Assembly: GCA_902826505.1 (NCBI GenBank)
Contig: CADEFG010000001.1
Coordinates: 1-31,214 of the forward strand
Source: an uncultured Acidobacteriota bacterium
GTDB lineage: Bacteria > Acidobacteriota > Blastocatellia > Pyrinomonadales > Pyrinomonadaceae
Direction: 5' to 3'
DNA length: 31,214 bases
Below the pieces are notes generated by a model. That model was given only the letters and a program-made list of their open reading frames with translations, was not told the DNA's origin and made no database searches. Both the position numbers and the translations under genes were made by a program. Shown in pieces: positions 409 to 31,021 of this stretch. Each line of letters opens with the position of its first letter. Position 1 is the first letter of the stretch.

Positions 409-1170
409 ATGAGCCAAGTTTTAGAAAAACCATCCGTTCCGGTCAGCGAGGTTTCCATCGAATCGGTTTTGCTTGATGCCGACCTGTTTGTCAAATACCG
501 TTCGCCCGACAAAGCCTTTCAACTCTTGCACGAATCGATCGAACGCAGTCCGCGCTCGATTTCTCTGCGCGAAAAAATGCGCGACATCTGCATCACGCAA
601 AAAAATCTCGACGAAGCCGCGCGGCAATGTCTGGCGCTCGTTAATCTCTACATCGGACGCGAAGATTTTGACCTCGCTTACGATCGTTTGCAGGAAGCCA
701 AACTGCTTGACCCGCGAATTTCGGTCGCGCCCGGACTCGAAGCAATTCGCCGCGCACGGCGTCCCGAATTTGCTCAAACTCGCGATAAAACGCCGCAAAA
801 AGTGCGCACCGATGTGACGTTTGCCGGAAATCTCGCGTATGTTTCGATCTTCGATGCCGTGCAGGTCATCGAAAGCGCACGAATGACCGGCTTGCTCGTT
901 CTTAAATCCGATCTTCATCTGGCGAGCGTTTCGTTTAACGAAGGCAAGATCGTCGATGCCGAATGCAACGGACATAACGGTGTCACGGCTTTCCGGAAAA
1001 TCATCGATATCAACAGCGGCACTTTTGAATTTTCAACTTCCGAATTTGAATTTCCGATCGTCATCAGCATTTCGAGCAACACCAACTTTCTGCTCGACGT
1101 GCTCACCGAACTCGACAACGAACGCGCCGAAAAACAAGGCTTGCGAAACCTGCGCGACGAAGATTTTTAA
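409..1170 (+). CDS. DUF4388 (PATAN-like) domain protein with an N-terminal TPR-like helical region
   Basis: C-terminal half FAGNLAYVSIFDAVQVIESARMTGLLVL...VSFNEGKIVDAE...GVTAFRKII...SGTFEF...ISSNTNFLLDVL matches the DUF4388 pattern. N-terminal helical repeats (EAARQCLALVNLY...AYDRLQEAKLLDP) are TPR-like. Confidence 0.75.
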   Translation: MSQVLEKPSVPVSEVSIESVLLDADLFVKYRSPDKAFQLLHESIERSPRSISLREKMRDICITQKNLDEAARQCLALVNLYIGREDFDLAYDRLQEAKLLDPRISVAPGLEAIRRARRPEFAQTRDKTPQKVRTDVTFAGNLAYVSIFDAVQVIESARMTGLLVLKSDLHLASVSFNEGKIVDAECNGHNGVTAFRKIIDINSGTFEFSTSEFEFPIVISISSNTNFLLDVLTELDNERAEKQGLRNLRDEDF

Positions 1171-1265
1171 AAGGGAAAAAGGGAAAGAGTAGAAAAGGGA
1201 AAAAGTCGGTTTAGTGAGTTCAAACCGACTTTTTCCCTTTTTCACCTTTTCCCTTTTTCCCTTTT
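1169..1265. repeat. About 97-bp palindrome with (AAAAAGGG)n arms
   Basis: 1193-1212 and 1222-1241 are a perfect 20-bp inverted repeat. 1169-1186 and 1248-1265 are a perfect 18-bp inverted repeat. The loop is 9 nt. It begins inside the upstream stop codon. Confidence 0.9.
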
Positions 1266-1268
1266 CAT

Positions 1269-1297
1269 TTGACTTCAACTCCTGAAAACAACAAAAT
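1269..1297 (+). promoter_or_regulatory. Possible sigma70-type promoter for smc
   Basis: TTGACT (1269-1274), 17-bp spacer, CAAAAT (1292-1297). Pattern match only. Confidence 0.3.
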
Positions 1298-1330
1298 ATA
1301 GTGCAAACTTACGCCCCAAAGCACTATACA

Positions 1331-4300
1331 ATGTTCAAACTTCAACGTCTCGAAATTACAGGCTTCAAATCTTTCGCCGATTACACGGAAATCGTCTTTA
1401 CAGGCAACGGAATCACCGCCGTTGTTGGTCCAAATGGTTGCGGCAAATGCGTCAGCGGCGACACAATGATAACTTTGTCCAATGGCAAGGAAGTTGAAAT
1501 TCGTGAATTAGTCGAAAACGCATTAGAAGAATCATTTTTCAGAGAGCAATTTGATGACGGATTTTTAACGCGCGAAAATCCGCAAAACATCGAAATTCTC
1601 TCGCTTAATCCAAAAACATTAAAAATTGAACCGCGTAAAATTTCCGCTTTTATCAAACGCGAAACAACTCCGAAACTTCTTTTAATAAAAACGCTTTCGG
1701 GACGCGCAATCAAAGCCACGCCGTATCATCCTTTATTCACTCTGAAGAACGGAAAACTTCTGACACTTCGGAGCGATGAGGTAAAAAAAGGCGTAAAAAT
1801 TGCGGTTCCGCGAATCTTAAAAACTAGCGAGAAAAATATAAAATTCTCACTAAAAGATTGTTTTGATAATTTTTATGATAATGATAATGTTTTCCTTCCA
1901 TTTTCTGACAATCTCAAAGATTGGACTGAAAAAGGAAAAAATTATTTTGGAACCATTGAAAATTGGACTGAAAAAGCACAAGTTCCAAGAAGTGTCGTTG
2001 GAGGATTACGAAATAAACAATCCATAAATGTTGCCGAACTGCAAAAGCTTTCCCGTGTTTTTGAGAATCCATTTTTTGAAAATGAAATAAAATCAAAAGG
2101 AGCCGGCTTCTTGAAAATTCCGCAAAACTTTTCGCCCGATCTGGCTCGTTTTTTAGGCTTGTTAATTGCCGAAGGTCGTAATACTTACTCAAATCAAGTT
2201 TGGTTTGTTAATTCTGACGAAGCTGTTAATCAGGATTTTGAAAGGCTTGCCAGGAAAGTTTTTGATGTCAGCGTAGCTCAAAAACAATACAAAAAAGGAT
2301 CAACCGACAGTTTCATTTTTTCAAAATCGCTTTGTCAACTTTTGGACAAGTTCTTTAATTTTTCGATAAATTCTAACTCTTTTGAAAAAGAAATTCCGCC
2401 GCAGATTTTCGAGTCTGAGGCTGAAACGAAATGGTCGTTTCTTTCAGGACTATTTGAGGGCGATGCCTACGTTTGTTCGCGTCCGCAAAAAAGTAATGGA
2501 AAATTGCTAAACTATATCGAATATTCAACTGCAAGCAAGAAATTAGCCGAACAAACAATTTCTCTACTTTTACAATTAGGTATTTTTGCGTATCTTCGAC
2601 CAAAGCAAAAATATGCTTCAAATACGATTAAAAAAACCGTTCGCACATATTATTCGGTTTTAATTTACGGTTCAAAACAACTTGCAGAAACTGCTCGAAA
2701 GTTATCTTTTGTCGGGGAAAAACAAAAATCGTTGGAAAAACTCCGAAATATGGAGATTTCAACTAATCCGAATCGTGATTTAGTTCCAAGCGCAACCGAA
2801 CTCGTCCGTGAGGCTGTAAAATTAGCTCAAGTCAAAATAAAACCAAACCGTCAAAATTCCCCTAAAATCGCCGCTTATACGAGCAGAATATGTGAAGCAA
2901 GTCGAAGCGGTTTAAACGAAGTTATCGGACAAATCAAACAATTAAGCCCAAATATTCAACCGGCTGAAAATGTGTTGGAACAACTTTCGATTCTTGCAAA
3001 TTCAGATGTATTTTGGGATGAAATCGTCAACGTTGAGGAAATTGAACCAACTGAAAATTGGGTTTATGATTTGAGCATTGACGAAACTCATAATTTCGTC
3101 GCGGGAAATTTCATTGTTCACAACAGCAATGTTTCAGAAAGTATCGCGTGGGTTTTAGGCGAACAGCGCGCCAAACAACTGCGCGGCGCGGAAATGAAGG
3201 ACGTTGTCTTTCAGGGCACCAGCAAACGCAAACCGTCGGGCATGGCGGAAGTCGTTCTGCATCTCGTCCGTGACGAAGAATCAATATTCGTTGGCGATGA
3301 AGAAGATCTGAGCGACATTGACGAAGCCTTGAGCGATCTCGACGAAAACGCCGTCCAGGTCGAAGATTTTGAAACGGAAGACACAATTGGCGATCAGCAA
3401 TCAGCGGTCAGGGATCAGGAAAACGGTTTTCACACCGAAGAACTCGAAACGGCACAAGCGGCGCAAGTCGGTTCGGTTCAAATCGTCGAGAAAAAAGTCA
3501 GAACGAAACGCCATTGGAAACCAAGAAGTTTCGCGCTCGATTTTGCGCCGGGCGAAGCGATTTCCGTCACGCGAAGGCTTTATCTTTCGGGCGAAAGCGA
3601 ATATCAATTGAACGGCAAAACTTGTCGTCTGCGCGACATTCAGGATTTGTTCGCGGGCACGGGTTTGTCGGGAGCGCATTACGCGATCATCGAACAAGGT
3701 CGGATCGGTCAGATCTTATCGGCAAAACCATCGGACCGGCGCGGTTTGATCGAAGAAGCCGCCGGAATCAGCAAATTCCGCACGCGCCAACGCGCCGCCG
3801 AAGCGCGGCTTGAATCCGCCAAAAGCAATCTTTCGCGCATTTCCGATATTGTTTCCGAAATTGAAACACAGGCAAACTCGCTGCGCCGCCAAGCCGCGAA
3901 AACGCGGCGTTACAAATTATTGCGCGAAGAATTTCGTGTGCTCTTAAAAAATCTTTTCACTGCCGAAGGCGGATATTTGACCGATTTGGTCAATGAATTG
4001 GAAGAAAAGTTGACGGAAGCGGTCAAAACGGAACGCGCAATTTTTGCTCGCGTCGCCGAGAAGGACGAAGCTTTTCGCGAAGCGACCCAAAAAGCGCGCG
4101 AGTCGGAAGAAAATCTTTCGGAAATTCGTGCCCGGCACGCCGAAAATGTTCTTGAAAGAGACCGCAATGCGCGGGAAAAAACCTATCGTCAGGAACAAAT
4201 TGAAAATCTCAAAGTACGGCTCGGCATTTTGAAAGGCGAAACGCAAGCGACCGAACAGCGCCGGAAACTTTTCGATTCGGAAATCGAACGGCTCAAAAAG

Positions 4301-6850
4301 GACGAACGCAAAGAATTGGCAGAAGCCGAAAAAAATGTTCTGGAATTTCAGTCTGCCGAGAAAAAATACCAGTCGAAATTGGAAGAATTGCGCGAAATCG
4401 AAGTCGACCTCGAAACGATGCGCGGCGAAGTTCTGCAGCACACGGCGGCGGTCGAGCGATTTGCGGAAATCGGGCGACAGCTTGAAAACAACCTCGAAAG
4501 ATTAAAAGAGCGTGCCGAAGGTTTGCGCCGCGAACGAATCCGCGCCGAAGAAACGCATGCCGAACACGCCAAAGAAGCCGTCCGGCTCGAAAAAGATTTG
4601 CGCGAAAAACGCGAGAAACTCAAGGATTTACACAACGAAAAGCAAAATTTTCTGGTCGAATCGGGCGCCGCGCGCTCGCTTTTGCAAGCAGCGGAAAAAG
4701 CTTTACGCGAGTTGCAAAACCAATTTTCGCGCAAGCAAAACAGGCTCGAAACCTTGCAGGAGCTAGACGAAAAACGCGCTGTTTACGCGCCTTCGGTGCA
4801 GAAACTTTTCGCCGAACAATCGAAAATCGGCGTCAAGTTTTCGGGTACTTTAGCGGATCAATTTAACGTCGGGGAAAAAGTCGAAAAAGCGGTCGAAAAT
4901 CTTTTCGGCGCGTTTTTGCAGACGGTGCTGGTTGAATCGGAAACCGATGCGCAAAAGACGGTCGAATATTTGAAGAAATCGAATCTCGGGCGAATCGCGG
5001 TTTTGGTTTTTCCCGCAAAGTCGCAAAGTCGCAAAGTCGCAAAGTCAGAACCGCGAGCGGCAGCGACCGGGTTGAACAACACAACTGAATTTTCAAATCC
5101 AAAATCCAAAATCCAAGATCTGCTTGGTGTTTCGGATGATTTTGCGGAAGTTTTGGCAGAGGTTTTTCCGCGTGAAATGTCTTTGGAATTGGTTGAAAAT
5201 TTAAGCGATAAAATTGCCGAATCGAATGTAAACTTGATCGATTCGGAAGGCGATTTTATTTTTGGCGGAAAACTTTTTGTCAGCGGAAAAACGAACGCCA
5301 ACGAGAAAAACTCGTCGCTGCTGGCGTTCAAACGCGAACTGCGCGAGCTTGAAACGACAATCAAGGATTTAACGAAGGAAACCGAAAAAAGCGAAAAGGA
5401 AACCGAAAAAGCGCGTCGGAATTTAGCCGAAAAAGAAGGACAAATCGTTGATCTGCAATCTTTTATCGTGCAGGTCGAGCGCGATTTGCTGTCATTGGAA
5501 ATTCAGGAAAAATCGGCGCGGGCAGAAACCGAACGCGCCGAACGTCATAAAAAGGTCGTCGCCGAAGAAATTGCGCAGATCGATGCGGAACTCGGCGAAA
5601 TCCAGACAAAACAAAAAGAAGCGCGGATCAACGCCGAAAAAGCCGAAAAAGCGCGCGTCGGGACTTCTGAAAAATTGGCGGAAATTTCAAACAAATTAAA
5701 TGAAGTGCGGTCAAAAACCGAAGCTGAGAATACGATTTTGAACGAGAAACGGACGCTTGCGGCAACAAGCGAAGAACGCCGGCGGTCGGCGCAAAATGCT
5801 TTGCGGCGCGTTGAAAACGAGTTTAAAGAACTCGATTCGCGTCAGGCTCGGCAGAATCTGGAAATTCTCGAAACCGAAGGCAAACAAAAGGCGCTCGCCG
5901 CTTCAATCGCCGACATCGAAGAAAAAGTTGCGCTTGCCGCGAGCGATCAGGAAGCGGAACAAAACGAACTTATCGGCGCGACCGCGCATCTTAAAAATGC
6001 GCGTGAAACGGCAGATGCGATGAGTTCCGAACTGGCGGAACTCAACAAAAATTCGGCAGACGCTCGAAACGAACGTGCCGCGCTCGAAATCCGGCAGACC
6101 GAAGCGATCACAAAACTCCGAAGCGTCAACGAAAATTGTTCGCACGAATTGAATTTATCGCTGATCGAATTGGTTGAAAACGAGACGGTCGCGGAAGATT
6201 TCGATCTGGAAACGGCGCGGACGCGCGCGGACGATTTGCGTGAAAAGCTCGATAATTTCGGCGCGATAAATATGCTCGCGCTCGAAGAACTGGCGGACAC
6301 GGAGGAAAGACTTTTGTTTCTGACCTCGCAGCGTCAGGATATTATTGACAGTATCGCGGCGGCGGAAGAAGCCTTGCGCGAGATCAAAGAGCGGTCGCGG
6401 TCGCGGTTTAAGGAAGCATTCGAGGCGATCAACGCAAACTTTATCGAGTTTTTTCAAGAGCTTTTCGGCGGCGGTCGCGGCGAGATGACTTTGCTCGAAT
6501 CCGAAGATATTCTCGAAGCGGGAATCGAGGTCGTTGCCCAGCCGCCGGGCAAGCGTTTGCAGAATATTTTGCTTCTCTCGGGCGGCGAGAAAGCGATGAC
6601 GGCGATCGCGCTCGTGATGGCGATCTTTCGTTATCGCCCGTCGCCGTTTTGTCTGCTGGACGAAGTTGATGCGCCGCTCGACGATGCAAACGTCGGAAGA
6701 TTTGTTGATAAAATCGCGGAAATGGCTGAGAAAACTCAGTTTATCGTTATCACGCACAACAAGCGAACGATGGAAGCGGCGCGGGCGCTTTACGGCGTGA
6801 CGATGCAGGAAGCCGGAATTTCAAAAGTCGTTTCCGTCAGATTTGAGTGA
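1331..6850 (+). CDS. smc: Chromosome segregation protein SMC, intein-containing precursor (1839 aa; about 1280 aa after splicing)
   Basis: MFKLQRLEITGFKSF start (ATG at 1331). Walker A GPNGCGK|SN, LFAGTGL...IIEQG Q-loop region, long coiled coils, hinge (GTLADQF...GRIAVL...EGDFIFGG), signature LLSGGEK, Walker B/D-loop CLLDEVDAPLD, switch ITH, and end GVTMQEAGISKVVSV. Confidence 0.97.
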   Translation: MFKLQRLEITGFKSFADYTEIVFTGNGITAVVGPNGCGKCVSGDTMITLSNGKEVEIRELVENALEESFFREQFDDGFLTRENPQNIEILSLNPKTLKIEPRKISAFIKRETTPKLLLIKTLSGRAIKATPYHPLFTLKNGKLLTLRSDEVKKGVKIAVPRILKTSEKNIKFSLKDCFDNFYDNDNVFLPFSDNLKDWTEKGKNYFGTIENWTEKAQVPRSVVGGLRNKQSINVAELQKLSRVFENPFFENEIKSKGAGFLKIPQNFSPDLARFLGLLIAEGRNTYSNQVWFVNSDEAVNQDFERLARKVFDVSVAQKQYKKGSTDSFIFSKSLCQLLDKFFNFSINSNSFEKEIPPQIFESEAETKWSFLSGLFEGDAYVCSRPQKSNGKLLNYIEYSTASKKLAEQTISLLLQLGIFAYLRPKQKYASNTIKKTVRTYYSVLIYGSKQLAETARKLSFVGEKQKSLEKLRNMEISTNPNRDLVPSATELVREAVKLAQVKIKPNRQNSPKIAAYTSRICEASRSGLNEVIGQIKQLSPNIQPAENVLEQLSILANSDVFWDEIVNVEEIEPTENWVYDLSIDETHNFVAGNFIVHNSNVSESIAWVLGEQRAKQLRGAEMKDVVFQGTSKRKPSGMAEVVLHLVRDEESIFVGDEEDLSDIDEALSDLDENAVQVEDFETEDTIGDQQSAVRDQENGFHTEELETAQAAQVGSVQIVEKKVRTKRHWKPRSFALDFAPGEAISVTRRLYLSGESEYQLNGKTCRLRDIQDLFAGTGLSGAHYAIIEQGRIGQILSAKPSDRRGLIEEAAGISKFRTRQRAAEARLESAKSNLSRISDIVSEIETQANSLRRQAAKTRRYKLLREEFRVLLKNLFTAEGGYLTDLVNELEEKLTEAVKTERAIFARVAEKDEAFREATQKARESEENLSEIRARHAENVLERDRNAREKTYRQEQIENLKVRLGILKGETQATEQRRKLFDSEIERLKKDERKELAEAEKNVLEFQSAEKKYQSKLEELREIEVDLETMRGEVLQHTAAVERFAEIGRQLENNLERLKERAEGLRRERIRAEETHAEHAKEAVRLEKDLREKREKLKDLHNEKQNFLVESGAARSLLQAAEKALRELQNQFSRKQNRLETLQELDEKRAVYAPSVQKLFAEQSKIGVKFSGTLADQFNVGEKVEKAVENLFGAFLQTVLVESETDAQKTVEYLKKSNLGRIAVLVFPAKSQSRKVAKSEPRAAATGLNNTTEFSNPKSKIQDLLGVSDDFAEVLAEVFPREMSLELVENLSDKIAESNVNLIDSEGDFIFGGKLFVSGKTNANEKNSSLLAFKRELRELETTIKDLTKETEKSEKETEKARRNLAEKEGQIVDLQSFIVQVERDLLSLEIQEKSARAETERAERHKKVVAEEIAQIDAELGEIQTKQKEARINAEKAEKARVGTSEKLAEISNKLNEVRSKTEAENTILNEKRTLAATSEERRRSAQNALRRVENEFKELDSRQARQNLEILETEGKQKALAASIADIEEKVALAASDQEAEQNELIGATAHLKNARETADAMSSELAELNKNSADARNERAALEIRQTEAITKLRSVNENCSHELNLSLIELVENETVAEDFDLETARTRADDLREKLDNFGAINMLALEELADTEERLLFLTSQRQDIIDSIAAAEEALREIKERSRSRFKEAFEAINANFIEFFQELFGGGRGEMTLLESEDILEAGIEVVAQPPGKRLQNILLLSGGEKAMTAIALVMAIFRYRPSPFCLLDEVDAPLDDANVGRFVDKIAEMAEKTQFIVITHNKRTMEAARALYGVTMQEAGISKVVSVRFE
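1448..3124 (+). mobile_element. Intein (559 aa) with LAGLIDADG homing endonuclease, inserted in the SMC Walker A
   Basis: Block A CVSGDTMITLSNG, block B IKATPYHPLFT (TxxH), LAGLIDADG motifs LARFLGLLIAEG and FLSGLFEGDA, block H YSTASKKLAEQTISLLLQLGI, block F VYDLSIDETHNFVAG, block G IVHN followed by Ser +1. Excision restores GPNGCGKSNV. Confidence 0.97.
3393..3420 (+). repeat. Four degenerate heptamers (RTCAGSR) inside the smc coding sequence
   Basis: ATCAGCA-ATCAGCG-GTCAGGG-ATCAGGA, within DQQSAVRDQE of the acidic head insertion. Confidence 0.6.
5011..5115 (+). repeat. In-frame repeat cassette in the SMC hinge: (CGCAAAGT)4, a GC-rich REP-like motif, and (AAATCCA)3
   Basis: 5014-5045 has 4 perfect octamers. 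5047-5071 is AGAACCGCGAGCGGCAGCGACCGGG. 5095-5115 has 3 perfect heptamers. Translates as PAKSQSRKVAKSEPRAAATGLNNTTEFSNPKSKIQ. Confidence 0.85.
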
Positions 6851-6853
6851 TTT

Positions 6854-7669
6854 ATGAAGAAATTTATATTTGCAATTTTAATCGCGGTAACAATTTCAGG
6901 ACTAGCGGTTTCGTTTTTTGCCCAGACGAAAAAGCCCGTCAAAAAGAATATCAAACCGACGCCGACACCGACCCCGCAAGTTTCGCCGTCGCAAAATGCG
7001 GAAGCCGAGCCGGTTAAAACGCCGACCAAAAAAAACGAGCGTCCGGTAAACGGAAATTCTTCAAATAATGCGCTTGCGACAAAAGATGCACCGAATTATT
7101 TTTACGAATTTTCGCAGCCCGCCTTTACGGTTTCAAAAGTTCTGATCGAGCATGACGAAAGCGGCAAAGGCAAAATTTCGTTTATGAAAAGTATTTCCGA
7201 CGAGGTAATTTCTGACCCGATCGAGGTTTCGCCCGCCGCGCTTGGAAGAATCAACGCCGCACTGACCGCGCTGAATTTTTTTGATTCGACGGAAAATTAC
7301 CAATACGAAAAAGATTATTCGCATCTCGGCAATATCACGATAAAAATAAAAAAGAACGGACGGATGCGGGAAACAAAATTTAACTGGACGCAAAATCAGG
7401 ACGCAAAAACATTGGCGGACGAATATCGCAAAATCAGCAATCAGTATATTTGGATTTTCGATATCAATCTGGCGCGGGTCAATCAACCGCTCGAATCACC
7501 AAAATTAATGGATATGATTGATTCATATATCAGGCGAAATGAGGTTTCCGATGCCACTCAGCTGATTCCTTTTTTGAAGGAATTAGGCAATGACGAACGC
7601 ATTCCGCTGATTGCGCGCAATCACGCGACCAGATTAATAGAAAAGATCGGGAAGGAAGAGAAAAAATAA
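6854..7669 (+). CDS. Exported hypothetical protein with a Pro/Thr linker
   Basis: Signal peptide MKKFIFAILIAVTISGLAVSFFA, PTPTPTP linker, host-like codon use, starts 3 nt after the smc stop (likely co-transcribed). Confidence 0.8.
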   Translation: MKKFIFAILIAVTISGLAVSFFAQTKKPVKKNIKPTPTPTPQVSPSQNAEAEPVKTPTKKNERPVNGNSSNNALATKDAPNYFYEFSQPAFTVSKVLIEHDESGKGKISFMKSISDEVISDPIEVSPAALGRINAALTALNFFDSTENYQYEKDYSHLGNITIKIKKNGRMRETKFNWTQNQDAKTLADEYRKISNQYIWIFDINLARVNQPLESPKLMDMIDSYIRRNEVSDATQLIPFLKELGNDERIPLIARNHATRLIEKIGKEEKK

Positions 7670-7678
7670 AAATGCCGC

Positions 7679-7719
7679 AAAAACCGTTTACAAATCGGTC
7701 GGTTTTGTAAACGGTTTTT
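7679..7719. terminator. Bidirectional Rho-independent terminator
   Basis: Perfect 16-bp inverted repeat AAAAACCGTTTACAAA / TTTGTAAACGGTTTTT between convergent genes. Confidence 0.85.
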
Positions 7720-7728
7720 CATCTTTTC

Positions 7729-10800: not shown

Positions 10801-10888
10801 AGCTTTCAATAATAATAGAACTTTGTTTGGATTGACTACAAAGTTTATATCTTTTTCTTGAAACATTCAAGAATTTTTTGAGATTTTC

Positions 10889-10930
10889 AAGAAAAAAAGC
10901 ACCGAGAATATCCTCAGTGCTTTTTTTCTT
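10889..10930 (-). terminator. Rho-independent terminator downstream of the CapA-family gene
   Basis: AAGAAAAAAAGCAC(C)GAG / CTC(A)GTGCTTTTTTTCTT. The single mismatch becomes a U-G pair in the minus-strand transcript. Confidence 0.75.
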
Positions 10931-10946
10931 GAGTTTGTCTGGAAAG

Positions 10947-12074: not shown

Positions 12075-12117
12075 ACGTTTCAAAATCACACCGAACCTAA
12101 GATGCCAAAAATTCGCG

Positions 12118-19544: not shown

Positions 19545-19666
19545 ATATAAGTGATTTGTCGAACAGCTCGCCCGACAAATAGAAAAAATTCCACAAAATA
19601 GTTGTTTTGGAAGGCTAATCAACTTCTTGCCTCTATTGACCAAATTCCGAGAGAGAAAATAGTTTC

Positions 19667-20149: not shown

Positions 20150-20173
20150 ATCTATTATAAACTGGTAAAATTT

Positions 20174-20758: not shown

Positions 20759-20774
20759 AATTCCATTTTTTCTT

Positions 20775-20824
20775 AAAACAGTAAAAGCCGTTAAGTTACG
20801 AAACTTAACGGCTTTTACTGTTTT
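20775..20824. terminator. Bidirectional terminator (perfect 23-bp stem)
   Basis: AAAACAGTAAAAGCCGTTAAGTT-ACGA-AACTTAACGGCTTTTACTGTTTT between convergent mglA and the VWA gene. Confidence 0.88.
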
Positions 20825-20877
20825 TGCGCCAAGCAATCTTGAGATTGAACGATAGATTGTATTAAGTTAATATTTCG

Positions 20878-23037: not shown

Positions 23038-23329
23038 ATTGCCTCCTTGAAAACAGCACAACACTTTCAGAGATTGGTTAAAACCGTTCTGAAAATTTGG
23101 CTAGAGTATTGGAAATTTTTGGTTCGGGGAGAACAAAAACATCATTTTGTTAGAGCACAGCCAAATTTTTGATAATTTAGTACCAGAAAATAAACATAAT
23201 ACAATAGGACAGTTAAATTTGGAAGTTTTTTTCTGGTCTGGGCGATCGATAATTTTGGCTTGCGCGATTTTGGATGATCAAACCGGGCGATCTAAAAAAA
23301 CACAAAAATGAAGAAGCCGATGAATAAAA

Positions 23330-25402
23330 TCAAGCCTCTGATTTTTCACCGTTTTCGTATTGTTCGAGTTTTCGATAAAGCGTTTTTCTTCCGATATTTA
23401 ACAATCTTGAAGCGCGGGATTTGTCGCCTGCCGTATAATCCAAAGCCATTTCGACCGCCTGTTTTTCGATTTCTTCCATGGTCGCGGGAAATTCGATTTC
23501 GAGGCTGACCGTACGACCTTCGTGCGCGGCTTTGGCACGTTCGTGACGGGCTTGGGCGTTCATTTCAAAGGCTTTTTTGCTAATCGCTTCGGGCAGATCG
23601 TCAAGCTCGATCTGGCGACCGGACGCGATGATAACGGCGCGTTCGATCGCGTTTTCGAGCTCGCGGACATTGCCGAGCCATTCGTAATTGACGAGCGCGC
23701 GTAAGGCTTCTTTGGAAATTCCCGACACAAAACGTCCGGTTTTTTCTTTGTAGCGTTCGAGAAAATGAAAAACGAGCAGATGAATGTCTTCGATCCGTTC
23801 GCGCAAGGGCGGCAGCGTGATCGGGAAAACCGACAGGCGATAATACAAATCTTTGCGGAATTTTCCTTCTTCGATCGCTTTTTCCAGATCAATATTTGTC
23901 GCGGCAACGACGCGCACATCCGTTTTGACAACTTCGTTTCCGCCGATCCGCGTCAGTTCGCCGTCCTGCAAAACGCGCAGCAATTTGACTTGCGCCGAAA
24001 GCGGCATTTCGCCGATCTCGTCAAGAAAAAGCGTCCCGCCGTCGGATTCTTCAAAACGTCCTTTGCGCTGATTTCTCGCATCGGTAAAAGCGCCTTTTTC
24101 GTGTCCGAAAAGTTCCGATTCGAGCAAGGTTTCTGGAATTGCCCCGCAGTTTATTTTGATATACGGTTTGTTTTCGCGTCCCGAATTGTAATGGATCAGA
24201 TTCGCCAGCAGTTCTTTGCCCGTGCCCGATTCGCCGTTGATCAAAACCGTCGTATTTGTGTCGGCAACGTTCAAGGCAAGTTCGATCGCGCGGCGAATCG
24301 TCGGCGCCTGCCCGATAATTTCGCTGTGTTTTTGATGAAGCTGCGATTTCAGACGCATGACTTCCGCCGAAAGCTGATCGCGCTCGAGGGCTGTGCCGAT
24401 CTGGTCGGAAATTCCTTCGACGAGCGCGACATCGTGATCTTCAAAGGGTTTGGCGGTTTCTTCGCTCCAGACAAAACCGATCAAACCGAAGGCTTGTCCG
24501 GCAACCCGCACCGGCGCGACCAGCGCGGCTTTGCCGTTGAGCTGCGAATTGAAGATCAGGCGAACCGCGAACGGCAGCTGCGTGTCGATCAGCCGCAGAG
24601 TTTTGCCTTCGCGCAGAATGTCGTTCAACGCCGGAAAAGGTTCGAGATCGAGCGATTGCTCGTGCTTTTCGATCATCTGCAAAACCTTGCTCGGTTTAAC
24701 CAGCGGCGCGGTTTTAAATGACGCGAGCGAGATTTTTTTGCCCGTCTGGTCGAGCACGCCGAGCGCACCGTAATCGGCGCCGACCAGTTCGACCGCGCGT
24801 TCCAGAACTTTGGCGGAAACGACCTTGAAATCCGAATGCGAATTCAAGGTGTTGGCGATTTCGAGAAGCGCGTTGGTGCGGTGCGTTTCCTGTTCCTGCG
24901 CGACATAAAGACTCGTGTATTGATAACCGATCGCAAGCTGTTGGGCGATCGATTCGAGAAACTGAATTTCCTCGTCAAACCATTCGCGCGGTGCGTGCGT
25001 GTCGTGAAGCCCGACCAATCCGAGGACTTTTTTGTTGAGACTGATCGGCACGATCAAAAGCGATTTTGTTTCGAGCGCTTTCGCAAAAAATTTGAGCGTC
25101 GCGTCTTTTGCCTCGGCGATGTCGTTGATCGCGATCGGTTTGGTGATGTCGAAGCGTTCGGAAAGTTTTTCGGTGTCGATCGGAATTTCCGTTCCTAAAC
25201 TCGACGGAATGGTCGGATCTTTGCGCCATTCGTGGCTGATTCGCAGCTCGCTGTCGGTCGTCAGCTGCAAAAGATCGCAGCGGTCAGCCTGCATCATACG
25301 CCCGATTTCGGAAACGACGACATTCAAAAATCTTTCGAGATCAATATTGGTCGGCAAATCACGCGCCAGACGATCGATAATCGCTTCGCGGGCTTCGTGC
25401 AT
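23330..25402 (-). CDS. Sigma54-dependent enhancer-binding protein (GAF-GAF-AAA+-Fis HTH)
   Basis: Two GAF-like domains, Walker A GESGTGKE, GAFTDA loop, Walker B LFLDEIGE, ATNIDL, DLYYRL, GNVRELEN, and HTH ASRLLNIGRKTLYRKL. Start is uncertain (25402, 25456 or 25534). Confidence 0.93.
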   Translation of the reverse strand: MHEAREAIIDRLARDLPTNIDLERFLNVVVSEIGRMMQADRCDLLQLTTDSELRISHEWRKDPTIPSSLGTEIPIDTEKLSERFDITKPIAINDIAEAKDATLKFFAKALETKSLLIVPISLNKKVLGLVGLHDTHAPREWFDEEIQFLESIAQQLAIGYQYTSLYVAQEQETHRTNALLEIANTLNSHSDFKVVSAKVLERAVELVGADYGALGVLDQTGKKISLASFKTAPLVKPSKVLQMIEKHEQSLDLEPFPALNDILREGKTLRLIDTQLPFAVRLIFNSQLNGKAALVAPVRVAGQAFGLIGFVWSEETAKPFEDHDVALVEGISDQIGTALERDQLSAEVMRLKSQLHQKHSEIIGQAPTIRRAIELALNVADTNTTVLINGESGTGKELLANLIHYNSGRENKPYIKINCGAIPETLLESELFGHEKGAFTDARNQRKGRFEESDGGTLFLDEIGEMPLSAQVKLLRVLQDGELTRIGGNEVVKTDVRVVAATNIDLEKAIEEGKFRKDLYYRLSVFPITLPPLRERIEDIHLLVFHFLERYKEKTGRFVSGISKEALRALVNYEWLGNVRELENAIERAVIIASGRQIELDDLPEAISKKAFEMNAQARHERAKAAHEGRTVSLEIEFPATMEEIEKQAVEMALDYTAGDKSRASRLLNIGRKTLYRKLEQYENGEKSEA

Positions 25403-25574
25403 TTTGATTTTTCTCTCGAGTGAAAAAGTTTGCGGGCTGTCAATTTCGATTTTCATAGAAAGGTGCTGACCGAAACAGAAACGGAAAAATTGCTCACAGA
25501 TTAACTGATAACCGAAAACCGGCATTGGTGTCAAGTTGACACAAACACAAACAAAAGTGTGTATTTTAGATTCA

Positions 25575-25617
25575 ATTAAAAAATCCGGTAAATCTTTTGC
25601 GTTAGATTTACCGGATT
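25575..25617 (-). terminator. Rho-independent terminator after the TPR gene
   Basis: AATCCGGTAAATCT / AGATTTACCGGATT perfect 14-bp inverted repeat with a T-run on the minus strand. Confidence 0.8.
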
Positions 25618-25638
25618 GAAAATATTTCGGCTGAGCTT

Positions 25639-26586
25639 CTACTGGTCGCCTTTTTTATCGAGTTTCTTTTCAGGCTTCTTTTCCGGTTTCTTTTCCGGTT
25701 TTGATTCGCCCGGTTTCGTTACTTCCTTGTCCGGCGTTTCCGGCGTGTCGGTTTCCGACGGTTTGACGGTTTGTTTCGATCTCGGCAAATTGTCCTGTTG
25801 CTGCGGCGGTTTTGGTGTATTGCCGAAATCAATCCGTTTTTTTCCGGCTTCGGCTTTTTCGAGAAGTTCCGCCGCTTCGGAATTTTCCGCGTCAATTTCG
25901 AGCGCTTTTTTCAAAGCCTTAACGGCTTCGTCATATCTCGCCAATTTAATCAGGATCGCGCCGAATTCGGTTTGATAAAGCGTTTCCTCGGGTTTGAGCT
26001 TGACGGCTTGGCGCAGGGCTTTTTCGGCATCTTCGTCTTCGTCGAGTTTGTTGTAAGAGCGTCCGAGATTGTAAAAGGCGGCATCGTCCTTTTCATTCTT
26101 CGCAATGATTTTTTTATACGCGGCAACCGCTTTTTCAAATGCTTTTTCCGAATCTTTGGTACGAACGACCGGCGCATCTTTTTTGCTTTTGCTTTTTTTA
26201 ACCGGCGTCGGGGTCGGCGTTAATTCAACCTCTTCGTTGAGCGATTCGACCTCTTTTTGCTTTTCGATCAGCGAATACGAGACGCCGAGCTTAAACCACG
26301 CCTCCGCCAGCTCGGGATTTAGTTTGACGGCTTGATTATAGGCTTCAACCGCTAGTTCCGTTTTGTTCGCGTCAAAAAGTTTGTTGCCCTCGGCAAAAGC
26401 CGTCTCGGCATCGGTAAATTCGGGCAAAGGCGTTGATTGCACCGGCACGTTTGAATTGACATTCGCCGCCGGAGTTTGCGCAGGTTGCACATTGGTATTA
26501 GATTGATTTGTGTTTGCTGAATCACCGCCGCAACCAAATTGCAGAGCAAGCCAAATAAATAATAAAGCCACAAAAATTTTTCTCAT
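25639..26586 (-). CDS. TPR-repeat lipoprotein
   Basis: Lipobox-like LQFGC. TPR motifs (AVEAYNQAVKLNPELAEAWFKLG; AFYNLGRSYNKL; AVKALKKALEID), a TPTPTP linker and a KKPE-repeat tail. Confidence 0.88.
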   Translation of the reverse strand: MRKIFVALLFIWLALQFGCGGDSANTNQSNTNVQPAQTPAANVNSNVPVQSTPLPEFTDAETAFAEGNKLFDANKTELAVEAYNQAVKLNPELAEAWFKLGVSYSLIEKQKEVESLNEEVELTPTPTPVKKSKSKKDAPVVRTKDSEKAFEKAVAAYKKIIAKNEKDDAAFYNLGRSYNKLDEDEDAEKALRQAVKLKPEETLYQTEFGAILIKLARYDEAVKALKKALEIDAENSEAAELLEKAEAGKKRIDFGNTPKPPQQQDNLPRSKQTVKPSETDTPETPDKEVTKPGESKPEKKPEKKPEKKLDKKGDQ

Positions 26587-26663
26587 TAAATTTTTCCTAA
26601 TAGTTGATTGTTAAAAACTCTCGACCCTTAGAATATAGAAAATTCAAATTCGTTTGTATAAAT

Positions 26664-27011
26664 TTAGCCGGGCGGGAAAATAAAGGGGCGACCGCCGAGC
26701 AGATGAACGTGGAGGTGAAAAACCGTCTGTCCGCCGTCGGCATTCGTATTAATGACGACGCGATAGCCATCTTCGGCAAAACCTTTTTGACGGGCGATCT
26801 GAGCGGTAGTCAAAAGCAGATGCCCGAGCGTTTCCCGATGATCGGCTTCGGCTTTGTCGAGCGACGCGAAATGCTCGCGCGGAACGATCAAAACGTGCGT
26901 CGGGGCTTGCGGGCTAATATCATTGAACGCGACGCAAATTTCGTCTTCATAAACGCGGGCGGACGGAATTTCACCGGCAATAATTTTGCAAAACAGACAA
27001 TTCTCGTTCAT
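26664..27011 (-). CDS. hinT: HIT-family nucleotide hydrolase (HinT-like)
   Basis: MNENCLFCKII, AFNDISPQAPTHVLIVPREH, GGQTVFHLHVHLLGGR (histidine triad). The upstream extension in the ORF track is repeat-derived. Confidence 0.93.
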   Translation of the reverse strand: MNENCLFCKIIAGEIPSARVYEDEICVAFNDISPQAPTHVLIVPREHFASLDKAEADHRETLGHLLLTTAQIARQKGFAEDGYRVVINTNADGGQTVFHLHVHLLGGRPFIFPPG

Positions 27012-27029
27012 AACGGAATGGTTATTATA

Positions 27030-27140
27030 AAAGCAAAAAGCAAAAAGTAAAAAGTAAAAAAGCAAAAACGTCCGGCTCAAAACTTATGACAAGGTCAGAA
27101 TGCGTTTTATTTTTGCTTTTTACTTTTTGCTTTTTGCTTT
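27030..27140. repeat. Palindrome with (AAAAAGY)n heptamer arms between murA and hinT
   Basis: 27030-27060 and 27110-27140 are inverted repeats with 30/31 identity around a 49-bp spacer. The right arm overlaps the murA stop codon. Confidence 0.9.
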
Positions 27141-28434
27141 AAACCTCTTCCGCCGCCATCGCCATATTATCGGTGATTCGCTCGATTTCGGCGCCGACAT
27201 TGCGAAGTTTTTTGACGATCGTTTCATAACCGCGGTCAATATGATAAACGCGGTCGATCAAAGTTTCGCCGGTTGCCGCGAGCGCCGCCAGCACGAGCGA
27301 AGCCGAAGCGCGCAGATCCGATGCCTGAACCGGCGCGCCCATCAACTCGGTTTTGCCGTGAACACGCGCCGTATTACCCGAGATTTCGATTTTCGCGCCC
27401 ATTCGGATTAGTTCCGAAGCGTGCATAAAACGATTCTCGAAAATTGTTTCGGTAACGGTCGAAACGCCTTCGGATTGCGTCATCAAAGCCATGTATTGCG
27501 CCTGCATATCGGTCGGGAAAAGCGGATGCGGTTCGGTCGTCACATCTTTGGCGGTCAAGCCGTTGTCGCCGCATTTGACGAGCAGCGTCGTCGGGTTGAG
27601 TTCTTCGATGACAACACCGGTTTCGCGCAGTTTTTCGATCACGGCTTTAAGATGCGCGGGCTCGCAATTTTTGATTTCAAGCTCGCCGCCCGTGATCGCC
27701 GCCGCAACGATAAAAGTTCCGGTTTCGATCCGGTCGGGAATGATCGTATGTTCCGCGCCGCCCAAAGCCTCGACGCCTTCGATCTCGATCTGATCCGTGC
27801 CCGCGCCTTTGATGCGGGCGCCCATTTTGTTCAAAAGGTCGGCTAAATCTTCGATTTCGGGTTCCTGCGCGGCGTTGTGAATCGTCGTTTTGCCGCTTGC
27901 CAAAGCCGCCGCCATCATCACATTTTCCGTGCCCGTAACGGTCACTTTTTCGAAATGCACGTCGGCGCCGATCAGGCGACCTTTCGGCGCCCGCGCGACG
28001 ACATCGCCGGATTCTAAGGACACGGTCGCGCCGAGCTGTTCAAACGCTTTCAGATGCAGATCGATCGGACGCGTGCCGATCGCGCAGCCGCCGGGAAGCG
28101 AAACTTTTGCCTGTCCGAACCGTGCGAGCAGCGGTCCGAGCGCCAAAACGCTCGCCCGCATCGTTTTAACGAGTTCATACGGCGCTTCGAAAGTTTCGAT
28201 ATTCGCGGCTTTAACCTTGTGCGTGCGAAGTTCGGGCGTCAGCACGGTCGCGCCCAGATCTTCCAGCAGACGCCGCTGCGTGATCAAATCCTTTACATAC
28301 GGAACATTGTGTAAAATAACGACTTCCGACGATAAAAGCGTCGCCGCGAGACACGGCAAAGCGGAATTTTTCGCGCCGCTGATCTCGATTTTTCCTTTCA
28401 GCGGTTTTCCGCCGTTGATGATAAATTTATCCAT
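27139..28434 (-). CDS. murA: UDP-N-acetylglucosamine 1-carboxyvinyltransferase
   Basis: SGAKNSALP, MRASVLALGPLL, LPGGCAIGTRPIDLH (active-site Cys retained), PDRIETGT, FPTDMQAQ, ETIFENRF, DLRASASL, HIDRGYE. Confidence 0.99.
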   Translation of the reverse strand: MDKFIINGGKPLKGKIEISGAKNSALPCLAATLLSSEVVILHNVPYVKDLITQRRLLEDLGATVLTPELRTHKVKAANIETFEAPYELVKTMRASVLALGPLLARFGQAKVSLPGGCAIGTRPIDLHLKAFEQLGATVSLESGDVVARAPKGRLIGADVHFEKVTVTGTENVMMAAALASGKTTIHNAAQEPEIEDLADLLNKMGARIKGAGTDQIEIEGVEALGGAEHTIIPDRIETGTFIVAAAITGGELEIKNCEPAHLKAVIEKLRETGVVIEELNPTTLLVKCGDNGLTAKDVTTEPHPLFPTDMQAQYMALMTQSEGVSTVTETIFENRFMHASELIRMGAKIEISGNTARVHGKTELMGAPVQASDLRASASLVLAALAATGETLIDRVYHIDRGYETIVKKLRNVGAEIERITDNMAMAAEEV

Positions 28435-28593
28435 AAAAGCGTAATTAAAGCAGAAAAAATTCCGCTCGTTTTAGATTTCCTTATAGAAGCAAGTAGCAAA
28501 TCTTATCACGAGTTTGGTGAAGAATAAAAATGTCGGCGAGAATATTTTCGATGAACAAACGGTGAAAAATTAAACCTGAAAAATCTTTTTTTT

Positions 28594-28696
28594 CTTCGCG
28601 ACTTTGCCCCTTTGCGGGAGAAAATAAATATTTACCCGTCGAAGAATTTGCTGATCAGACTGAATTTATTTCCCGCAAAGCCGCAAAGTCGCGAAG
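28594..28696. repeat. Inverted pair of (CGCAAAGN)3-type octamer arms
   Basis: CTTCGCGACTTTGCCCCTTTGCGGGA (28594-28619) versus TCCCGCAAAGCCGCAAAGTCGCGAAG (28671-28696), 24/26 complementary. Confidence 0.85.
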
Positions 28697-28727
28697 ATTT
28701 TGTTCGTTCAATCGGCATATCTTGAGC

Positions 28728-30989
28728 TTATTTTTTCTTGACGTAGCGATTGTAGACAATGTCGGGCGTTTCGAGATTGCGCCCGTTTTTCAGATTGATC
28801 GCGAGCCGGATAAACTGCGCCATCGACCACGCGAGCGGCGTCGCCGAACCATTGCCTTCGCCGAATTTGAGCGTCGGCGGAATAAAACCGTAGTCGATCT
28901 TTTTCGGGATTTCCGCCCGATCCCAGATTTGTTCGGGAATCATCAAGCCATCGTTTGAAAAAGCGAGCATCGCATCAAGTCTGCTATAAGCCTCGGGAAG
29001 CCACCTTCTTTTTACTTTCTTTATCGGATAATTTGGGTTTTTGCGCTTTTCTTTTTCTTCCTTTACCCAATTTTCATGCCATTGCTCGGCGATCGCTAAT
29101 TCATATTGCCCGCGTTCGCCCGTCAAAAGCGCCCAAAGATGACCGTTTCCGCGCCACGTCGTATCCCAATTCCAGCGGTTTCCTTCGTAGGTGTCGCCGT
29201 AACCGTCATGATTGTAGCGATACCAGCATTCGCCGTTCGGCGTGTTGACTTTCAAAACCTCGTCAACGACTTTGAGCGATTTTTGAATCAGCGCGTCGTC
29301 GGGCGATTTGATTCCTAATCTGACCAATTCCAAAAATCCGGCGTCAACGATCTCGCGTTCGTCAAAAGTTCCGGCGCCGTTGCCGAGCTCTAATTTCTCA
29401 CCCGAATCGGGTTTGCCGTTTTGCGAAAGACGCAGATAATAATTGCCGTCGCCGTATTTGCCCGTGCGCGTCGCCGTCCAATTTTCGATGTTTGATTGCC
29501 AGTTGTCAGCAGTTTCGAGCCAACGCCGCGCTGATGCTTCGTCGCCGTTCATTTTGGCGATTTCCGCCGCGCAAACTAATCCGGCGATTTCCGCCGCGAT
29601 CGTCGAAGGCGAATAACCCGATTCTTCTTCCCAGCGTTCCTGTTTTGTAAAAGGTCCGTTTTTCGCGATGTAATCGGCTGACTTTTTGATGTTTTTCTCG
29701 TAAGTCGTTTTATCGGTTTTGCCGAGCTGATAAGCCAAAATCAGCGGATACGAAATTTCGTCCATCTGGATCGAATCGCCAACCGTGCGACCGTCGAGCC
29801 ATGAAATCTGCGGAAAACTGCCGTCGTCGCGCTGCTGATATTTGAACAAATATTCGAGTGCGCGAATCGCCGCCGCATTGTCGCCGAGTGCCATTTGCGC
29901 CGTCGCGACCTGATACAAATCGCGCGACCAGACGAGATGATAGCCGGTCGTCGTTTCGTTGCCGTTGTTGCCGCCGCCCCATGGAACGCTCAGGCTCGCG
30001 ACATTTCCGCCGCGCGTCGTTTTATCCTCGAACGCCCGCAAAACCATCGCCGCCATGTTAAACTGCGCCTGATATTTCGGCGCGACGCGCGGCAAAGTTT
30101 TCGCGTAATCAGCCCAACCTTTTTCGTATTCGGCTTTAACTTCGGCAAAACTTTTTTTGGCAGACAATACGGCATTTAACCATGCGGCATTTCCGTTAGT
30201 CGAAAAGCCCAGAGCTACAAGAAATTTTTGAGGGTTTTTGATCTTCGCCATTTGAACGACATTGCCATTTTTGGCTTCCTCATATGGCGAAACTATTTTT
30301 CCAAACTCCCGAAGTTGCTCTAACCCGTCGCTTGTTTGATAAAAACCACTTGTTGTTTCTTCTTTACCCGTTGAAATTGTTCCGTTTGAAATAAACAGCG
30401 AAGCGAAAATATTCCCATCAGTCGAAATTAATTTATCCGAATATGCCGAGTCGTGCATTCCGCTGTTATTAATAGACGGATCAAAATAAATATAGAGATT
30501 TAGATTTTTATTCTTTGTCTGGAACTGAACGTCAATTAAAAGCGAATCTCTTTCGCTGGTCGCGTAAGTTTTCGTGATCTTCCATTCGCCCGATTTTGCC
30601 GTGTTGATCTGCTGAAAGCTCAATGAATCAGGGCGCAAAGGTTTGATTTGATGATTGGCGTCGTCGCGCTCGGTTTCGACTTTTTTCGTTTTCGGATTGA
30701 CGACGACAAACTGCAAAACGTTGACGTTTGCCGTATCGACCTGCGGGTAAAAAACTTCGGTCAGCATTCCGCCTTGGAGTGTGAACCAGATTTTCGATTC
30801 GAGCGTCGCGCTCGTTCCGACGGCTTGTTTGCCCGCGCTCGACCATTGTGCGTCTTTGCCGGGCGCATTCGGCGCGAGCGTTTGCGCGTGTGAAGAGATG
30901 AAGAAGATTCCCGCCAAGGCGCAGAGGCGCAAAGTTAAAACAAAAGATGAAAATATTGTTTGCATAAAATCACTTGAATAATTCTTCAT
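28728..30989 (-). CDS. Secreted GH15 glucoamylase/glucodextranase
   Basis: APGKDAQWSSAGKQAVGT (glucodextranase-N-like), GYHLVWSRDLY, QMDE, QERWEEESG (catalytic acid region), IPEQIWD, SATPLAWSMAQF. Start is 30989 or 30965. Confidence 0.92.
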   Translation of the reverse strand: MKNYSSDFMQTIFSSFVLTLRLCALAGIFFISSHAQTLAPNAPGKDAQWSSAGKQAVGTSATLESKIWFTLQGGMLTEVFYPQVDTANVNVLQFVVVNPKTKKVETERDDANHQIKPLRPDSLSFQQINTAKSGEWKITKTYATSERDSLLIDVQFQTKNKNLNLYIYFDPSINNSGMHDSAYSDKLISTDGNIFASLFISNGTISTGKEETTSGFYQTSDGLEQLREFGKIVSPYEEAKNGNVVQMAKIKNPQKFLVALGFSTNGNAAWLNAVLSAKKSFAEVKAEYEKGWADYAKTLPRVAPKYQAQFNMAAMVLRAFEDKTTRGGNVASLSVPWGGGNNGNETTTGYHLVWSRDLYQVATAQMALGDNAAAIRALEYLFKYQQRDDGSFPQISWLDGRTVGDSIQMDEISYPLILAYQLGKTDKTTYEKNIKKSADYIAKNGPFTKQERWEEESGYSPSTIAAEIAGLVCAAEIAKMNGDEASARRWLETADNWQSNIENWTATRTGKYGDGNYYLRLSQNGKPDSGEKLELGNGAGTFDEREIVDAGFLELVRLGIKSPDDALIQKSLKVVDEVLKVNTPNGECWYRYNHDGYGDTYEGNRWNWDTTWRGNGHLWALLTGERGQYELAIAEQWHENWVKEEKEKRKNPNYPIKKVKRRWLPEAYSRLDAMLAFSNDGLMIPEQIWDRAEIPKKIDYGFIPPTLKFGEGNGSATPLAWSMAQFIRLAINLKNGRNLETPDIVYNRYVKKK

Positions 30990-31021
30990 AAATTCTTTGC
31001 GCCTCTGCGCCTTGGCGGGAA
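30908..31021. repeat. Perfect 27-bp inverted repeat with octamer-variant arms enclosing the GH15 start codon
   Basis: TTCCCGCCAAGGCGCAGAGGCGCAAAG (30908-30934) is the exact reverse complement of 30995-31021. The spacer is 60 bp. Confidence 0.95.

Follow-up and report, generated by a model that had tools for sequence, protein, structure and literature searches.

Contig CADEFG010000001.1 of an uncultured Acidobacteriota bacterium (assembly GCA_902826505.1, family Pyrinomonadaceae) is 31,214 nt long and was analyzed in its entirety; we call it the window. It carries a DUF4388 gene and smc near one end and a HIT-family gene, aroA, and a GH15 (glucoamylase) gene near the other, and beside these genes lie four long palindromes whose arms consist of tandem copies of a 7- or 8-nt unit. 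The genome to which the window belongs (G000) is a metagenome-assembled genome (MAG) from wastewater that is 83% complete and comprises 5.7 Mb in 1030 contigs. We compared it with further genomes (G001–G014, G053, G095, and G167), of which the congeners are ~80–85% identical to G000 in DNA. The relatives were sampled as stretches of 82–433 kb and are themselves related to one another.

Element 1 (1169..1265) pairs two 44-nt arms (1169–1212 and 1222–1265; 91% complementary) around a 9-nt loop. Its arm units are of the AAAAGGG/AAAAAGGG type, to which a unique inner stem is added. The element begins within the TAA stop codon (1168–1170) of the DUF4388 gene, ~36 nt upstream of the start of the smc open reading frame (ORF), and has a predicted folding energy of -59.6 kcal/mol (z -10.4). 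Element 2 (27030..27140) has 31-nt arms of AAAAAGC/AAAAAGT heptamers (27030–27060 and 27110–27140; 97% complementary) and a 49-nt loop. The space from the aroA stop codon (27139–27141, minus strand) to the start of the HIT-family gene is filled by the element, whose fold is the weakest of the four (-37.5 kcal/mol, z -5.5).

The other two elements are octamer hairpins. Element 3 (28593..28697; arms 28593–28624 and 28666–28697, 27–32 nt, 88–93% complementary; -49.1 kcal/mol, z -9.5) lies between the GH15 stop codon and the aroA promoter region and has the common polarity, (CTTKGCGN)n-GGGA, loop, TCCC-(NCGCMAAG)n. Element 4 (30908..31021; arms 30908–30934 and 30995–31021, 27 nt, 100% complementary, 60-nt loop; -63.2 kcal/mol, z -10.0) has the rarer, reversed polarity (TTCCCG...CAAAG, loop, CTTTG...CGGGAA). 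The GH15 start codon (30987–30989, minus strand) sits in its loop, and one of its arms encodes part of the signal peptide.

The z-scores were derived from 200 shuffles per element with single-stranded folding; for each of the four elements, 0 of 200 shuffles folded as well (z range -5.5 to -10.4). Tandem Repeats Finder (TRF) detected the 7–8-nt periodicity in the arms, the units of elements 1, 3, and 4 being octamers or a mixture of 7 and 8 nt. An earlier note, made from the sequence of the window, had placed four palindromes at these positions, with two overlapping a stop codon and one enclosing a start codon, and the arms, folds, and periodicity bear this out. The note had also stated that unit variants in one arm are mirrored in the other. 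This holds perfectly for element 4; elements 1 and 3 mirror their variants imperfectly, and in element 2 the arms are out of step by one unit. As the note had said, the window holds no candidate for a mobilizing gene, and it gave no match to an Rfam family.

Heptamer- and octamer-armed hairpins across the genome

We scanned G000 for inverted repeats with arms of at least 20 nt, complementarity of at least 85%, and loops of at most 150 nt, and found 550, compared with 1 in a locally shuffled copy of the genome. The arms have a 7-nt period in 188 of these repeats, an 8-nt period in 73, and another period in 29, and they are non-periodic in 260; heptamer- and octamer-armed hairpins thus total 261. 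Among tandem arrays in general, those of period 7 number 94.5 per Mb, whereas periods 6 and 9 reach 2.6 and 12.6, respectively, and neighboring arrays form 265 inverted pairs but only 11 direct ones. The single architecture with many unit sequences that had been seen in four copies is therefore a property of the whole genome.

Inside genes we found only 14 of the 550 inverted repeats, in a genome that is ~83% coding. Heptamer hairpins start at a median of 5 nt past the upstream stop codon (interquartile range 1–14), the median number of units per arm is 3.6, and ~15% of spacers of 60–600 nt hold such a hairpin. The 261 hairpins use 84 consensus units, with word groups that include GGATTTT/GGTTTTT/GGTCTTT; CATTTAT/CATTTAA; AATGGAT; GAGTCGA; AAAAAGTG/AAAAGGG; AATCGTC/AATCGGG; and the octamer CTTKGCGN with a GGGA cap. 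(Clustering of the arms through shared 9-mers chained everything into one cluster.) For a given word, the polarity of the 5' arm is constant: 26/26 for GGATTTT, 14/14 for GGTTTTT, 13/13 for both ATCATTT and AATGGAT, and 10/10 for CGAGAGT. Octamer hairpins mostly have CTTKGCGN on the 5' side, with a few reversed copies that include element 4. Because a hairpin reads alike on both strands, this polarity is a property of the element itself.

The order of unit variants is individual to each hairpin and is often perfectly mirrored in the partner arm. In a comparison that is biased by ascertainment, because the hairpins had been pre-selected at a complementarity of at least 85%, an arm matched its own partner at 0.94 and the partner from another hairpin of the same word, in the best register, at 0.88. 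The excess is large in octamers (0.93–0.97 versus 0.72–0.79) and small in GGATTTT. Within that bias, these values support the proposal of the earlier note that the arms were copied from each other. The loops behave differently from the arms. Most are unrelated, and among 219 loops of at least 30 nt the tandem-armed hairpins gave only one similarity cluster of nine, one of three, and one pair, the remaining clusters being non-periodic families; the AATCGGG/AATCGTC family has a conserved loop of ~50 nt, which occurs in both orientations.

The starts within a few nucleotides of stop codons would suit functional RNA structures selected at these sites, namely intrinsic terminators or REP-like (repetitive extragenic palindromic) stabilizers of mRNA 3' ends, with the tandem make-up as a by-product. 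The octamer hairpins are also enriched in convergent spacers (29/70, against 13% of the background) and less frequent in divergent ones (14% versus 19%), and elements 1 and 2 have an A-rich 5' arm and a U-rich 3' arm, as in bidirectional terminators. However, in many families, such as GGATTTT and GGTTTTT, the U-rich arm comes first and the stem is not followed by a U tract, loops reach 140 nt, 27 heptamer or octamer hairpins lie between divergent genes, and element 4 encloses a start codon. A scan with the terminator consensus called none of the four elements, and stem mismatches read on the sense strand show no excess of G:U over A:C (63 versus 80 in heptamers; octamers were likewise symmetric). 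Selection for RNA structure would also leave unexplained the versions of these hairpins that carry a gene in the loop (see below), and we consider it quite unlikely to account for the family.

The earlier note had further suggested an analogy with REP/BIME elements and their mobilization by RAYT proteins (Y1 transposases), and G000 does contain 13 Y1_Tnp matches as well as REPIN-like palindromes. The RAYT-like genes on contigs C12, C48, C197, and C279 are adjoined, at ~90–240 nt and on both sides in the case of C48, by palindromes that are non-periodic (C12:20950-21091; C48:12160-13043; C279:1961-2040; C197:6489-6633), and a further non-periodic family, GTCAGAACCGNCTGCGG, gave 25 pattern matches in the genome. 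None of the 13 Y1 genes is tied to a heptamer hairpin, and the nearest octamer hairpin is 634 nt away. The hairpins described here resemble REP elements and REPINs in being short intergenic palindromes that occur in hundreds of copies, often past stop codons, but their arms are direct tandem arrays rather than small palindromes, they lack a conserved GTAG or CGTC head, and they are not flanked by RAYT genes. The REP/RAYT palindromes are a separate, ordinary REPIN-like system that exists beside the heptamer hairpins, and it is highly improbable that the latter are elements of that type.

The short tandemly repeated repetitive (STRR) sequences of cyanobacteria, which the earlier note had also named, are a fitting analogue, as are heptamers of the Xanthomonas type. 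Xanthomonas GGGAATC repeats have ~4 units, are ~89% intergenic, lie near or overlap stop codons, and form 70–75 inverted pairs; orthologous sites are kept between species with variation in length and sequence, and neither a link to insertion sequences nor a function was found (Rehm et al., 2015, PMC4692102). The repeats of G000 share the tandem 7-nt unit in ~4 copies and the intergenic position near or overlapping stop codons, and AATCGGG, one of their word families, is a rotation of GGGAATC. They differ from GGGAATC and from the GGGGA(C/T)T repeats of Nostoc in that they use dozens of words, some of 8 nt, and in that inverted pairs are the norm and not just a subset. Most words also lack a G run (for example GGATTTT, CATTTAT, AATGGAT, and AAAAAGT), which excludes G-quadruplex formation as the common denominator.

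In a Beggiatoaceae genome, TAACTGA repeats are direct, lie mostly 5' of start codons, and include 1 inverted set among 170 (MacGregor, 2015, PMC4679880). Like these and the cyanobacterial repeats, the arrays of G000 use lineage-specific heptamer words in few copies per array at hundreds of intergenic sites, but here, unlike in the TAACTGA repeats, inverted pairs dominate. A likeness to MITEs (miniature inverted-repeat transposable elements) and foldback elements lies in the inverted terminal arms around a variable middle and in the conserved loop of the AATCGGG/AATCGTC family; the arms of Drosophila foldback elements also consist of tandem repeats. In contrast to MITEs, the hairpins have mostly unrelated loops rather than a conserved internal sequence, most copies are old residents, and no target-site duplication was seen at the one site clean enough to show it.

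Orthologous sites in related genomes

The spacer that holds element 1 contains a tandem-armed hairpin in 10/10 species (G000 and nine congeners), but with four types of word: AAAAGNG-type in six, AATTACG in G167, octamers in G010 and G005, and a GGTTTTT-type in G004. At the element 2 site, a hairpin directly follows the aroA stop codon in G005, G003, G004, and G011, with units altered in both arms; the counterpart in G011 precedes a different downstream gene. The element 3 site is occupied by octamer hairpins with other unit orders and loop lengths in G004 and G010, by an unrelated non-periodic palindrome in G005, and by a degenerate remnant in G003. G003, G004, and G010 have counterparts of element 4 in the same place, in which the units have changed and are unequal in number. 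The element is absent in G005, where the signal peptide is encoded differently.

Beside element 1, just 5' of smc, a small inverted repeat (1289–1335; AACAAAATATAGTGC ... GCACTATACAATGTT) is kept in five of the nine congeners scanned (G002, G003, G009, G012, and G004) and is retained while the adjoining large hairpin switches its word; this small repeat is a possible regulatory site for smc.

On a 433-kb stretch of G004, we could map 13 heptamer or octamer hairpins to G000. Seven of the 13 sites are co-occupied by a tandem-armed hairpin, compared with a baseline of 15% (hand-calculated binomial ~0.005), and three are empty in G000. At some co-occupied sites the words of the two genomes are one or two bases apart, in every unit (AGTTCAA/AGTCCAA, AGATTCA/AGATTTC); at others the words are unrelated, as in the case of GTGGTCG versus CATTTAT, both of which have a 16-nt loop. 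As the same spacers are kept across a genus that is ~80% identical in DNA, most of the hairpins are old residents. No target duplication was found at the one site with clean borders between presence and absence. Insertion boundaries can be read at that site only, because the closest candidate for comparison, G002, is 98% identical to G000 in the aroA fragment but ~82% identical in DNA overall. Presence at orthologous sites in relatives, which the earlier note had named as evidence against mobile elements, thus gives a divided answer. The term mobile, which the note had applied to these elements, fits the clean cases of presence and absence and the replacement of words, but it does not fit the persistence at orthologous spacers or the lack of a target duplication.

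These comparisons also bear on the RNA-structure explanation discussed above: a hairpin that is maintained in the element 1 spacer of all ten species despite replacement of its sequence is what selection at the site would give, whereas clean absence at orthologous sites is not.

The earlier note had pointed to single arms that lie in frame in smc, and these are real; TRF detects all three (3390–3418, 5014–5046, and 5095–5120). A GCGATCA-type heptamer array of ~4 copies with 77% matches (3390..3418, plus strand) lies in an acidic insertion of the SMC head. The hinge contains two further plus-strand arrays: a single octamer arm comprising TCCC and four perfect CGCAAAGT units (5011..5046; units 5014–5046), and 3.7 copies of the heptamer AAATCCA (5095..5120). 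Nine species (G000 and eight congeners) have both hinge arrays at one shared codon position, translated as low-complexity peptide. The word of the first array is GTCCAAA, GTTCCAA, GTTCAAA, or the octamer, and that of the second is AAATCCA, AAATCGC, or AAATTTC depending on the congener, every unit having been altered together. The heptamer AAAGTCC and the octamer AAAGTCGC are a single inserted base apart, and that insertion has been propagated to all units. The hinge arrays are the clearest case of concerted change in our material. Hairpins and arrays of this kind contribute stop and start codons, portions of signal peptides, and, in SMC among other proteins, low-complexity inserts.

An excess of period 7 and heptamer-armed hairpins were also found outside the genus, and the genomes concerned belong to other genera, to different families within the class, and to further classes of the phylum. 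The vocabulary differs by genome, and among ten sampled genomes one had no such hairpins and one had few. In 151 genomes of the phylum, the octamer pattern gave 114 matches in G000, 52 in one other genus of the family, and three or fewer in each of three others. The octamer word is local, but the architecture is widespread.

The octamer pattern CTTKGCGNCTTKGCGGGA was also observed on contigs of MAGs labeled as belonging to other phyla, namely Syntrophobacter (L009, L041, and L056), Deltaproteobacteria (L014, L045, L052, and L083), and Prevotellaceae (L019 and L067), where it may reflect independent use of the word, transfer, or mis-binning.

Gene-bearing cassettes and the origin of the arms

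The earlier note had proposed asking which genes lie between such arms elsewhere, and we found that full-length versions enclose PF05635 (S23p-type) and GxxExxY genes. G000 has nine PF05635 genes (named four-helix-bundle protein in NCBIfam, TIGR02436, with a weak match to Avd), and heptamer arms bracket eight of them. In an independent scan, all six tandem-armed inverted repeats with loops of 363–419 nt proved to hold a PF05635 gene, and in five relatives 26 of 30 PF05635 genes lie between inverted arrays, the period being 7 nt in 21 cases and 8 nt in 2. In G000, octamer arms also adjoin two genes for GxxExxY (PDDEXK_3) nucleases. A reverse transcriptase was considered as a partner of the Avd-like protein and rejected, the single RVT_1 match in the genome not adjoining a cassette.

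The cassettes share their words with the gene-less hairpins. Eight aligned PF05635 paralogues are 16–41% identical, and each has a different word; heptamer cassettes have the same polarity as gene-less copies of that word. Cassette words are matched in gene-less arrays at 10.6 per Mb in their own genome, compared with 1.5 per Mb in other genera. AGTAGAA, for example, occurs at 40 per Mb in G014 and at 0–1.2 elsewhere, and TCGGTGG at 13.9 in G004 and 0.3 in G000. An S23p cassette on contig C13 is orthologous in three species and its word drifts, and at one further site a cassette in G001 corresponds to a gene-less hairpin in G000. The cassette on C326 spans exactly from a stop codon, in its first unit, to a start codon, in its last. 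At C10:6430-6972 in G000 (locus L327), the orthologous site carries an S23p cassette with the word TCGGTGG in G004 and GTGAGCG in G001; the ~400–540 nt present in G000 contain neither an S23p match nor a bracketing hairpin and, judged by eye, look like a small minus-strand ORF.

S23p proteins are encoded in intervening sequences (IVS) of rRNA genes. The IVS of Coxiella burnetii 23S rRNA is 428 nt long and has a 28-bp stem and an S23p ORF; the stem region contains tandem GACAGAT heptamers in numbers that depend on the strain, and RNase III cleaves inside the stem (Warrier et al., 2016, PMC4990558). The cassettes of G000 likewise have a long terminal inverted-repeat stem around an ORF of the PF05635 family, with loops close in length to the Coxiella IVS, but they lie between protein-coding genes rather than in rRNA helices. 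The four elements of the window have stems of the same kind, with tandem units in arms of 27–44 nt that are 88–100% complementary and fold strongly, but their loops of 9–60 nt hold no PF05635 or GxxExxY ORF. They are therefore at most gene-less relatives of the cassettes and not cassette members in the strict sense.

The hairpins form a large family with one architecture: they sit tightly behind stop codons, keep a fixed polarity for each word, have long resided at their sites with concerted change, and have gene-bearing counterparts that use the same words. On balance, we think it somewhat probable that the window elements reside at their sites as gene-less relatives of S23p/IVS-type cassettes, with slippage and copying from one arm to the other maintaining their uniformity. 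Under this interpretation, gene-less elements would be related to cassettes with a PF05635 or GxxExxY gene in the loop, and their uniformity would arise from replication slippage within arrays together with template switching or repair between arms, for which no transposase would be needed. When transcribed, stems of 24–45 bp could act as substrates for double-stranded RNA processing of the RNase III type, by analogy with the Coxiella IVS, or as 3'-end structures between neighboring genes. Cassette proteins might in addition seed or maintain their own word at other sites, which is the weakest step of the scheme.

The main rival to a relationship with cassettes is a purely mutational origin with the genes as passengers: slippage would favor 7-nt units, stalled forks and template switching at quasi-palindromes would make inverted pairs, no factor would act in trans, and S23p and GxxExxY genes would land in, or be captured by, existing loops. 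Several of our results are as this explanation would have them. Single arrays without a partner occur, and 132 of 541 period-7 arrays lie inside genes; the arrays of the smc hinge switch their word in place, with no hairpin involved; orthologous sites retain hairpins; stem mismatches have no strand bias; and the number of S23p genes does not follow array density. Slippage has, moreover, been proposed for heptamers (Mrazek, 2007, as cited in PMC4692102). Local mutation does not, however, explain why word families with dozens of dispersed loci keep a single polarity, why each genome has a small vocabulary that equals the words around its own S23p genes, why unrelated words are swapped at one site, or why arms stop at ~4 units. 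We regard this explanation as rather unlikely.

A number of observations count against a relationship between the window elements and the cassettes, or weaken the evidence for it. The window itself contains no PF05635 or GxxExxY cassette gene. The only clear GxxExxY cassette has a polarity opposite to that of most gene-less octamer hairpins. The abundant words GGTTTTT, AAAAAGTG, AATGGAT, and AATTACG have no gene-bearing cassette in G000, an 83%-complete MAG. Across ten genomes, the number of S23p genes is not proportional to array density, with 1 gene and 75 arrays per Mb in G014, ~22 and 31 in G053, and 6 and 5 in G095. The lack of a G:U excess in stem mismatches means that there is no sign of selection at the level of RNA. 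In a 2x2 control of orthologous gaps in G004 and G000, which was underpowered, the filters left 34 pairs, of which 3 included a G004 hairpin. Counts across genomes also overstate independence, because the genomes compared are related and the samples small.

A stronger proposal, which we consider unlikely, is that proteins and words form a code, in which each S23p-type four-helix-bundle paralogue recognizes its own 7-nt word and, alone or with a GxxExxY nuclease, seeds, maintains, or re-homes arrays at post-stop hairpins throughout the genome. Word matching alone suggests such a trans-acting synthesis or mobilizing system, of the kind that the earlier note had envisaged. A parallel can be drawn between the ~4–5 units of an array and the homopentamer formed by S23p: PDB entry 2gsc, from the Xanthomonas campestris S23p gene XCC0516, and entry 2rld have five chains each, and the crystal structure of Xanthomonas S23p is a homopentamer in the account cited in PMC4990558. 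If the code were real, a single cause would underlie both the protein-coding intervening sequences of rRNA and the heptamer repeats found in cyanobacteria, Xanthomonas, Acidobacteriota, and other groups.

The repeat type is known, but the variant described here, with many words, a predominance of hairpins, and a link to S23p and GxxExxY, is undescribed in the literature that we searched. The account of the Xanthomonas repeats (Rehm et al., 2015) makes no connection with S23p/GxxExxY cassettes, and in the literature searched we found no report linking dispersed gene-less heptamer hairpins to such cassettes, which is not proof of absence. In the genomes analyzed here, heptamer repeats and S23p cassettes are physically one kind of object, with the same arms, words, polarity, and intergenic place, each paralogue having a word of its own. 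Bacterial tandem repeats of heptamers have been recorded since ~1990, beginning with the STRR sequences, with neither a mechanism nor a function assigned, and the S23p proteins encoded in rRNA intervening sequences are orphans to the same degree. Through the shared features, these two descriptive puzzles become a single testable hypothesis.

Other features of the window

Convergent genes flank a palindrome at 20775–20824 that pairs perfectly over 23 bp around a 4-nt loop. Its arms are non-repetitive, unlike those of the tandem-armed elements, and it has the look of an ordinary bidirectional terminator. Next to element 2, a promoter-like site on the minus strand (27024..27051; TTTACT, 16 nt, TATAAT) is built from the T-rich arm of the element and its flank and lies directly 5' of the ATG of the HIT-family gene. 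It matches the consensus at 10 of 12 positions, the best match of the region, and is a candidate on that basis; the stretch from TATAAT to the ATG is identical in G000, G005, and G003. Upstream of aroA (28440–28560, minus strand), near element 3, a motif of ~30 nt, GTGATAAGATTTGCTACTTGCTTCTATAAG, is nearly unchanged in eight species while the rest of the spacer is not alignable, and it is probably the aroA promoter or leader.

The smc gene contains an intein with a LAGLIDADG domain (1448–3124; Pfam Intein_splicing and LAGLIDADG_3). The open frame that holds smc has ~1270–1310 codons in most congeners and ~1820 in G005 and G008, and from these differences the intein seems to be limited to some species.

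Three public runs labeled RNA-Seq contain parts of the window as sparse short contigs that terminate at repeat arms, and contigs from public runs placed on the window stop at the arms of element 4; such repeats may therefore add to the fragmentation of metagenome assemblies. One contig, from a DNA run of a similar sample, has 27 different letters in place of the 60-nt loop of element 4 (30934–30995), possibly a strain variant, for which support is weak, the short side of the match being 23 nt.

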